Sequence record: ON782582.1
Strand: one strand, 5' to 3'
DNA: 64,000 nucleotides
Source of the DNA: Escherichia phage ECP52
The notes below the pieces were generated by a model. That model worked only from the letters and a program-made list of their open reading frames with translations. It did no database searches and was not told where the DNA came from. Positions 46,191-46,730 of the stretch are shown piece after piece. A program made the position numbers and the translations under genes. Positions within the stretch are counted from its first letter, which is position 1; each line of letters opens with the position of its first letter.

Positions 46191-46730
46191 ATGAAATATA
46201 TGACTGTTACTGATCTGAATAATGCAGGCGCTACTGTTATTGGTACAATCAAGGGCGGTGAGTGGTTTTTGGGAACTCCACATAAAGACATTTTATCTAA
46301 ACCTGGATTTTACTTTTTAGTGAGCAAATTAGATGGTCGTCCATTTAGTAATCCATGTGTGTCTGCACGATTTTATGTAGGTAATCAACGTTCTAAGCAA
46401 GGATTCAGCGCAGTTCTAAGTCATATTCGTCAACGTCGGTCTCAGCTTGCACGTACTATTGCAAATAACAATGTTCCATACACAGTATTTTATCTGCCTG
46501 CTTCTAAGATGAAACCTCTGACGACGGGATTTGGAAAAGGACAGTTAGCTTTAGCGTTTACTCGTAATCATCATTCCGAGTATCAAACACTTGAAGAAAT
46601 GAATCGTATGTTGGCTGATAACTTTAAATTCGTTTTTGCAGGCATATTAATGAGTAATTTCCACAACGAACATGTGATGCAGTTCTATCGCAACAATCTT
46701 AAAACTAAAGGCGTCCGAAGACGCCAGTGA
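46191..46730 (+). CDS. ndd: Ndd-like ORF (about 153 codons) continuing in frame through the stp codons (179 aa total)
   Basis: AGAGGAAATTAAT RBS then ATG 46191; no stop before the stp ATG. Confidence 0.45.
46650..46730 (+). CDS. stp: Stp peptide (26 aa), nested in frame at the 3' end of the ndd-like ORF
   Basis: [26 protein letters not shown] recognised as T4 Stp. Confidence 0.5.

Follow-up and report, generated by a model that had tools for sequence, protein, structure and literature searches.

An extra T places ndd in frame with stp in the genome record of Escherichia phage ECP52

In the genome record of Escherichia phage ECP52 (ON782582.1) the gene for the nucleoid disruption protein Ndd reads without an intervening stop into stp, a gene of 26 codons. 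The Stp peptide has two functions, activation of the anticodon nuclease PrrC and inhibition of type IC restriction. Is the joint frame an arrangement by which Stp is made as an extension of Ndd, is it a recent lesion, or is it a mistake in the record? We analysed a stretch of 64,000 nt from this genome (the window), a segment of a Tequatrovirus (T4-like) genome with the plus-strand gene order denB, the small ORFs ndd.1–6, ndd, stp, ac, 52.1 and gene 52. Judged from the alignments, the joint frame is not a designed arrangement but a lesion, or else a miscall, in an ndd–stp–ac locus that is otherwise of the ordinary T4 type.

The ndd–stp frame and its counterparts in relatives

The single open frame runs from the ATG at 46191 to the TGA at 46728–46730 (179 codons plus the stop) and is made up of Ndd residues 1–148, five frameshifted residues (FAGIL) and the 26-residue Stp; the longest mechanical ORF of this frame begins upstream, at GTG 46143, and encodes 195 aa. 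Pfam resolves the fused ORF into two domains. Residues 1–149 match PF06591 (Phage_T4_Ndd; E-value 6e-93) over the full length of the profile (positions 1–151 of 154, 309 bits versus a curated cut-off of 25), and residues 154–179 match PF08133, the anticodon-nuclease activator (E-value 3.5e-16). The stp peptide by itself matches PF08133 end to end (positions 1–26 of 26, 65 bits versus a cut-off of 25). Matches to PHROG 1102 (Ndd) and PHROG 6763 (Stp) agree with Pfam, and a 152-aa Ndd cluster representative shares 97% identity with the Ndd part of the frame.

The original prediction, made from the letters of the window, that a 26-codon stp lies at the 3′ end of a 179-codon frame with no stop in between is thus borne out by the two-domain match, with the stp codons at 46650–46727. 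Its description of the first 153 codons as ndd-like holds for residues 1–148; residues 149–153 (FAGIL) are instead an out-of-frame reading of LQAY and the stop. The weak ribosome-binding site that it had noted before the stp ATG (GCAGG, with AGG as its core) is present 7 nt upstream of the start and is unchanged across the aligned relatives. Coordinates of the features are collected in Table 1.

Table 1. Features of the ndd–stp region and TTCG-loop hairpins elsewhere in the window
Feature	Position	Strand	Remarks and basis
GAGG Shine-Dalgarno of ndd	46179–46182	+	8 nt before ATG 46191; read in the sequence
ndd-homologous part (Ndd residues 1–148, end …DNFKFV)	46191–46634	+	PF06591, alignment
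Run of five T (four in relatives)	46633–46637	+	Changes the reading frame of ndd 12 nt ahead of the old stop; alignments
Five frameshifted linker codons (F A G I L)	46635–46649	+	In place of the conserved LQAY end of Ndd; alignment
AGG, sole SD-like element of stp	46640–46642	+	7 nt before the ATG; same in relatives; sequence, alignments
Ancestral ndd stop TAA overlapping the stp ATG (TAATG)	46648–46650	+	Here out of frame with ndd; T4 and RB27 annotation, alignment
stp, 26 codons (46650–46727) and TGA	46650–46730	+	PF08133 (E-value 3.7e-18), PHROG 6763
Hairpin GGCGTC-CGAA-GACGCC at the stp 3′ end	46710–46725	+	Perfect 6-bp stem; loop 46716–46719; alignments
ac (acridine resistance), next gene downstream	46738–46896	+	Intact, own GAGG; ORF list, RB27 and Ge15 annotation
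TTCG hairpins, examples	5283–5298, 7648–7667, 8918–8937, 15799–15816, 22671–22690, 28165–28186, 38994–39011, 44275–44292, 44504–44519		Hairpin scan of the window

Alignment with seven phages (T4, T2, T6, RB27, Ge15, EO1 and vB_Eco_F25, hereafter F25) reduces the difference at the junction to one base. Where the window has TTTTT all seven have TTTT, in the context …AAATT(C/T)G-TTTT-(G/A)CAGGCATATTAATGAGT…, and in 7/7 of them ndd ends with …FKFVLQAY-TAA, the last A of TAA also serving as the A of the stp ATG (TAATG). The T4 annotation (NC_000866) gives ndd at 165585–166040 and stp at 165505–165585, with one base in common, and the RB27 annotation agrees. The original prediction was therefore right that stp is a separate gene in T4, where it has 26 codons and an annotation of its own. 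The comparison with T4, T2 and T6 that it proposed puts a stop between the two genes in all three, and the possibility, raised along with it, that T4 itself has the same in-frame arrangement is ruled out by the overlap of the T4 ndd TAA with the stp ATG. The TAATG is kept in the window (46648–46652), but its TAA is out of frame with ndd: ndd enters the stp frame because of the one additional T in the homopolymer, 12 nt before the old stop. In the T2 (AP018813) and T6 (AP018814) records, and in most phage records, stp is unannotated.

The C-terminal motif of Ndd, …NF(K/N)F(V/I)LQ(A/S)Y followed by the stop, is absent from the window, where the frame continues into Stp. All of the 10 aligned Ndd homologues, with identity down to 53%, end in LQ(A/S)(Y), and L149 and Q150 are near-invariant even among homologues that are only 53–63% identical. 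Such conservation of the C-terminus, reaching down to 53% identity, makes the fused state in the window clearly derived. A literature search on the Ndd C-terminus yielded nothing useful.

Other carriers of the five-T junction were sought at the DNA and protein levels. A pattern allowing both flanking polymorphisms gave zero exact matches in IMG/VR, metagenome contigs and GTDB genomes, IMG/VR being a thin sample for this purpose with just five normal four-T junctions in the collection. A 41-mer with five Ts, in three flanking haplotypes, had no 100% match among 473–476 phage records (about 475 Tequatrovirus), and the best matches listed all cover 40 bases, not 41; a 75-mer with the five-T junction had no 100% match in the phage records either. 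A tblastn search with the junction peptide gave 578 full-coverage records, and the best 40 of these were all broken into two frames. The fused protein, compared with 5.8 billion protein clusters, identified 130 Ndd relatives of 117–167 residues; in none of these 130 cluster representatives does the match extend over more than 83% of the fused protein, and PF08133 is absent from all of them. Look-up of the exact fused protein, in the 179-aa and the 195-aa forms, found no record.

Several phage records (among them EO1 and F25), several protein clusters and records filed as Escherichia coli call Ndd ‘naphthalene 1,2-dioxygenase’, a propagated misannotation.

The hairpin loop of stp and the block shared with EO1

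The best relative in the collection is Escherichia phage EO1 (OQ223305), overall 93–98% identical to the window. Over a block of 5,681 bp (42701–48381), which contains the 3′ part of rIIA, rIIB, denB, ndd.x, ndd, stp, ac, 52.1 and 52, the two phages are identical except for the extra T and a 4-nt loop, with no point substitutions. An identical block amid flanks of 93–98% identity is a mosaic pattern, which at the level of the alignment indicates recent recombination. We also considered that the whole window is a near-copy of EO1, in which case the two differences in the stp region would be highly non-random; this was rejected, the identity being 93–98% overall and the near-complete agreement being restricted to the 5.7-kb block. 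Elsewhere, around EO1 position 42270 (window 35042), a one-base difference splits the dexA-like exonuclease ORF of EO1 into 102 + 176 codons; the dexA-like ORF of the window (34818–35501) is intact with 227 aa, and EO1 annotates just a 339-nt ‘exonuclease’.

The second of the two differences lies ~80 bp downstream of the extra T, in the loop of the perfect hairpin at the 3′ end of stp. This loop is CGAA in the window and TTCG in T4, EO1, RB27 and Ge15; the one is the exact reverse complement of the other, and the stems GGCGTC/GACGCC are untouched. The flip converts F23G24 of Stp to RR (the T4 Stp tail is …KGVFGRQ). A loop replaced by its reverse complement between intact stems is what a template switch during replication leaves behind at an inverted repeat (PMC8794818, PMC8604942), and four-base loops were the typical case in a survey of such events (PMC8794818). 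This template-switch inversion of the tetraloop, 80 bp downstream of the T run, is a second real mutation in the ECP52 lineage, with F23G24 to RR as its product.

Among 428 phage records the flipped loop is present in F25 alone, the other 427 being non-flipped, and its exact pattern gave zero matches in IMG/VR, metagenome and GTDB contigs. Aligned with the window over 1,482 positions, F25 shows 53 differences, some of them just 4 and 21 nt outside the hairpin. Since these place the hairpin so close to a different flanking haplotype, the flips of F25 and the window are, most simply, independent. The loop flip looks like a recurrent template-switch inversion inside coding sequence.

The predicted energy of the hairpin is −10.6 kcal/mol in the window versus −11.5 kcal/mol for the C(UUCG)G form; the UUCG hairpin tetraloop was first described in T4 mRNA (PMC4371310). 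TTCG is the commonest loop among the perfect hairpins of the window with a stem of at least 5 bp and a 4-nt loop (10 of 137), and each of these ten has a stem rich in GC and carries the TTCG on the locally transcribed strand. In the scan of the window the stp hairpin is the only GC-rich one oriented opposite to the local transcription pattern. Another GC-rich CGAA hairpin, at 52852–52867, is situated in a region of minus-strand genes and has UUCG in its own transcript. The stp hairpin was also considered as an intrinsic terminator on the sense strand and rejected: there is no U-tail at this place, and the terminator scan flags the minus strand only.

The N-terminal 22 residues of Stp in the window are identical to those of T4 Stp, and the N-proximal 18 residues, which hold the loss-of-function sites 4–14, are identical to T4, T2 and T6. 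Loss-of-function mutations of stp, known as suppressors, cluster at Stp residues 4–14; across T4 relatives residues 1–18 hardly vary, and without its last eight codons Stp shows only a moderate reduction of both activities (PMC3014915). In T2 and T6, which also have the four-T TAATG junction, Stp agrees over the first 18 residues and then ends in a quite different tail (…NLKNFGILGFKK); the GGCGTC hairpin is lacking in both. Given a tail that is reported to be largely dispensable and is divergent in T2 and T6, the effect of F23G24 to RR on Stp is probably mild.

Mutation, miscall, adaptation or recoding

The reading that we prefer, with a probability of about 0.5, is that the extra T is real and arose very recently, as a slippage mutation private to the ECP52 lineage: one T would have been gained in the TTTT near the end of ndd by strand slippage in replication. 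The loop inversion next door is not a miscall, and the locus has therefore truly changed in this lineage. T4 needs neither ndd nor stp to grow on laboratory hosts, so a phage with the fusion should be viable.

A sequencing or assembly error, the first of the refuting conditions named in the original prediction, is a serious competitor, which we hold to be somewhat less than an even bet. Here a homopolymer would have been miscalled, and the true phage would have TTTT, a 152-residue Ndd ending in LQAY and a separate stp at TAATG, as in EO1. The extra T is indeed a single-base homopolymer difference, unique among all sequences searched, and a change in homopolymer length is the commonest consensus error of several sequencing platforms. 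Yet identical bases occur in runs of five at 356 places in the window, in runs of six at 63 and in runs of seven at 4, and a homopolymer-prone chemistry should fail first in the longer runs; no other conserved gene is frameshifted in the 64 kb. An error would, like a private mutation, leave zero other carriers among hundreds of relatives, and it would fit with the TTTT of the otherwise identical EO1 block and with the destruction of a C-terminus that is conserved throughout the Ndd family. Such a loss is, however, tolerable in genes that are non-essential in T4. The absence of point substitutions from the EO1 block also speaks against a private mutation, a pair of real events inside 90 bp of a block that is otherwise unchanged being somewhat unexpected under neutral mutation. 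Still, the adjoining inversion of four bases, an exact reverse complement that is also seen in F25, is not a base-calling error and shows that the locus has truly diverged.

Other frameshifts in conserved genes, a sign of an error-prone assembly, were looked for across the 64-kb window and none was found. Among the 46 ORFs of at least 150 aa, the large conserved genes have the lengths of their T4 counterparts (DNA polymerase, 898 aa; rIIA, 725; rIIB, 312; gp52, 442; gp34, 1,289). The other indels versus EO1 that are not a multiple of three lie at ORF ends or between ORFs, or they break an ORF in EO1 and not in the window; around the indel at 24937 the match is poor, and no conserved gene is affected. 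As a separate observation, the large topoisomerase subunit (39061–40881) is a single ORF of 606 aa, as in EO1. The T4 subunit is split into genes 39 and 60, and ECP52, with the subunit unsplit, is thus without the T4 gene 60 bypass arrangement.

It is also conceivable, if improbable, that the fusion is real and adaptive. With Stp attached to the C-terminus of Ndd, an abundant early protein, and termination–reinitiation at TAATG lost, free Stp would be lowered or masked, for instance in propagation on a host with a PrrC-type anticodon nuclease; the phage would avoid triggering abortive infection through PrrC or another Stp sensor, and the loop inversion would be a second hit in stp. The sole two events in the 5,681-bp EO1 block lie in a stretch of 98 bp, one at the end of ndd and the other in stp; by our own rough estimate the chance of two random events falling within 90 bp of each other in this block is ~3%, and so close a pair in an otherwise unchanged block hints mildly at selection on stp. 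Both sites, a homopolymer and a perfect hairpin, are, however, intrinsic mutation hot spots, and their closeness may be due to chance. Loss-of-function alleles of stp are classic suppressors selected on prr+ hosts, but wild-type T4-like phages counter PrrC via Pnk and RNA ligase 1, and loss of stp is favoured and selected only in pnk or rnl mutants (PMC3014915); the pnk and rnl genes are outside the window. Moreover, the suppressors are at Stp residues 4–14 and loss of the tail has a moderate effect, which again makes the RR change a probably mild one, and the fusion was seen in no other phage.

Programmed recoding, in which the ribosome or RNA polymerase would slip on the T run, five U in the mRNA, and make normal Ndd and the Ndd–Stp fusion in a set ratio, is very improbable: the five-T state is not conserved and occurs once among the sequences searched, the native frame needs a +1 shift for which the sequence shows neither a slow codon nor a prfB-type upstream Shine-Dalgarno stimulator, five Ts are too few for efficient transcriptional slippage, and the 81 nt around the site (46600–46680) fold no better than shuffled sequences (z = +0.43). 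A regulatory RNA structure around the stp start was likewise rejected, the fold not rising above the shuffles (z = +0.4).

Expression of Stp and comparison with known systems

In the ancestral state, ribosomes that end Ndd at TAATG would be able to restart on stp despite its weak AGG; this weak element and the TAATG overlap suggest that translation of stp in the relatives is coupled to termination of ndd. With a genuine slippage mutation in ECP52, ribosomes on ndd would pass the junction and make a 179-residue protein of Ndd 1–148, FAGIL and Stp, and Ndd would lose its conserved LQAY end. Free Stp of 26 residues would come only from independent initiation at ATG 46650, on a message crossed by elongating ribosomes. 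Reliant in this way on de novo initiation at a weak ribosome-binding site, the level of free Stp should drop.

The original prediction had proposed that Stp could be made as a C-terminal extension of Ndd, from an internal start, or both. For the sequence as written this stands, since the fusion would be made and free Stp would arise only through the internal ATG with its weak ribosome-binding site. The notion of an alternative mode of expression is unsupported, all seven aligned relatives having the TAA/ATG overlap and the extra T occurring in no other sequence searched.

If the extra T is real, ECP52 is a natural ndd/stp double variant, with an Ndd that lacks the conserved C-terminus and with Stp mostly tethered to Ndd. 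Such a variant would offer a way to learn whether only free Stp triggers PrrC and whether stp needs the coupling to ndd for its expression. This is a modest point at the level of a strain, and the picture of Stp expression in T4-like phages is unchanged because every other genome examined keeps the TAATG overlap. For annotation the consequence is more direct: automatic gene callers will give an ‘Ndd’ of 179 or 195 residues and miss stp. The loop inversion, for its part, would be a clean and recurrent example of a template switch inside a phage coding sequence, a small curiosity.

The ECP52 locus resembles the T4 ndd–stp pair in its genes, in their order and neighbours (denB, ndd.1–6, ndd, stp, ac, 52.1, 52), in the same weak AGG and in a full-length Ndd domain. 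It differs from T4, which has two separate products, in that ndd is in the stp frame, the TAA is unread and the Stp tail has RR, not FG. EO1 is identical to ECP52 over 42701–48381 bar the two events, whereas its TTTT and TTCG leave ndd and stp separate; with 93–98% identity elsewhere, it is a distinct phage with a common mosaic block.

Frameshifting in homopolymers by strand slippage (the Streisinger model) was first worked out on genes of T4. The change in ECP52 is like those frameshifts in that one base is gained in a run of identical bases and the downstream frame is altered. The usual outcome is early termination, whereas here two known proteins are fused in frame, because stp starts 12 nt later in the new frame. 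The second event has its parallel in the template-switch inversions of hairpins (PMC8794818, PMC8604942), with which it has in common the unchanged stems, a 4-nt loop that is the exact reverse complement and recurrence, in F25; what sets the ECP52 flip apart is that it lies within coding sequence, alters two amino acids and removes C(UUCG)G from the sense mRNA.
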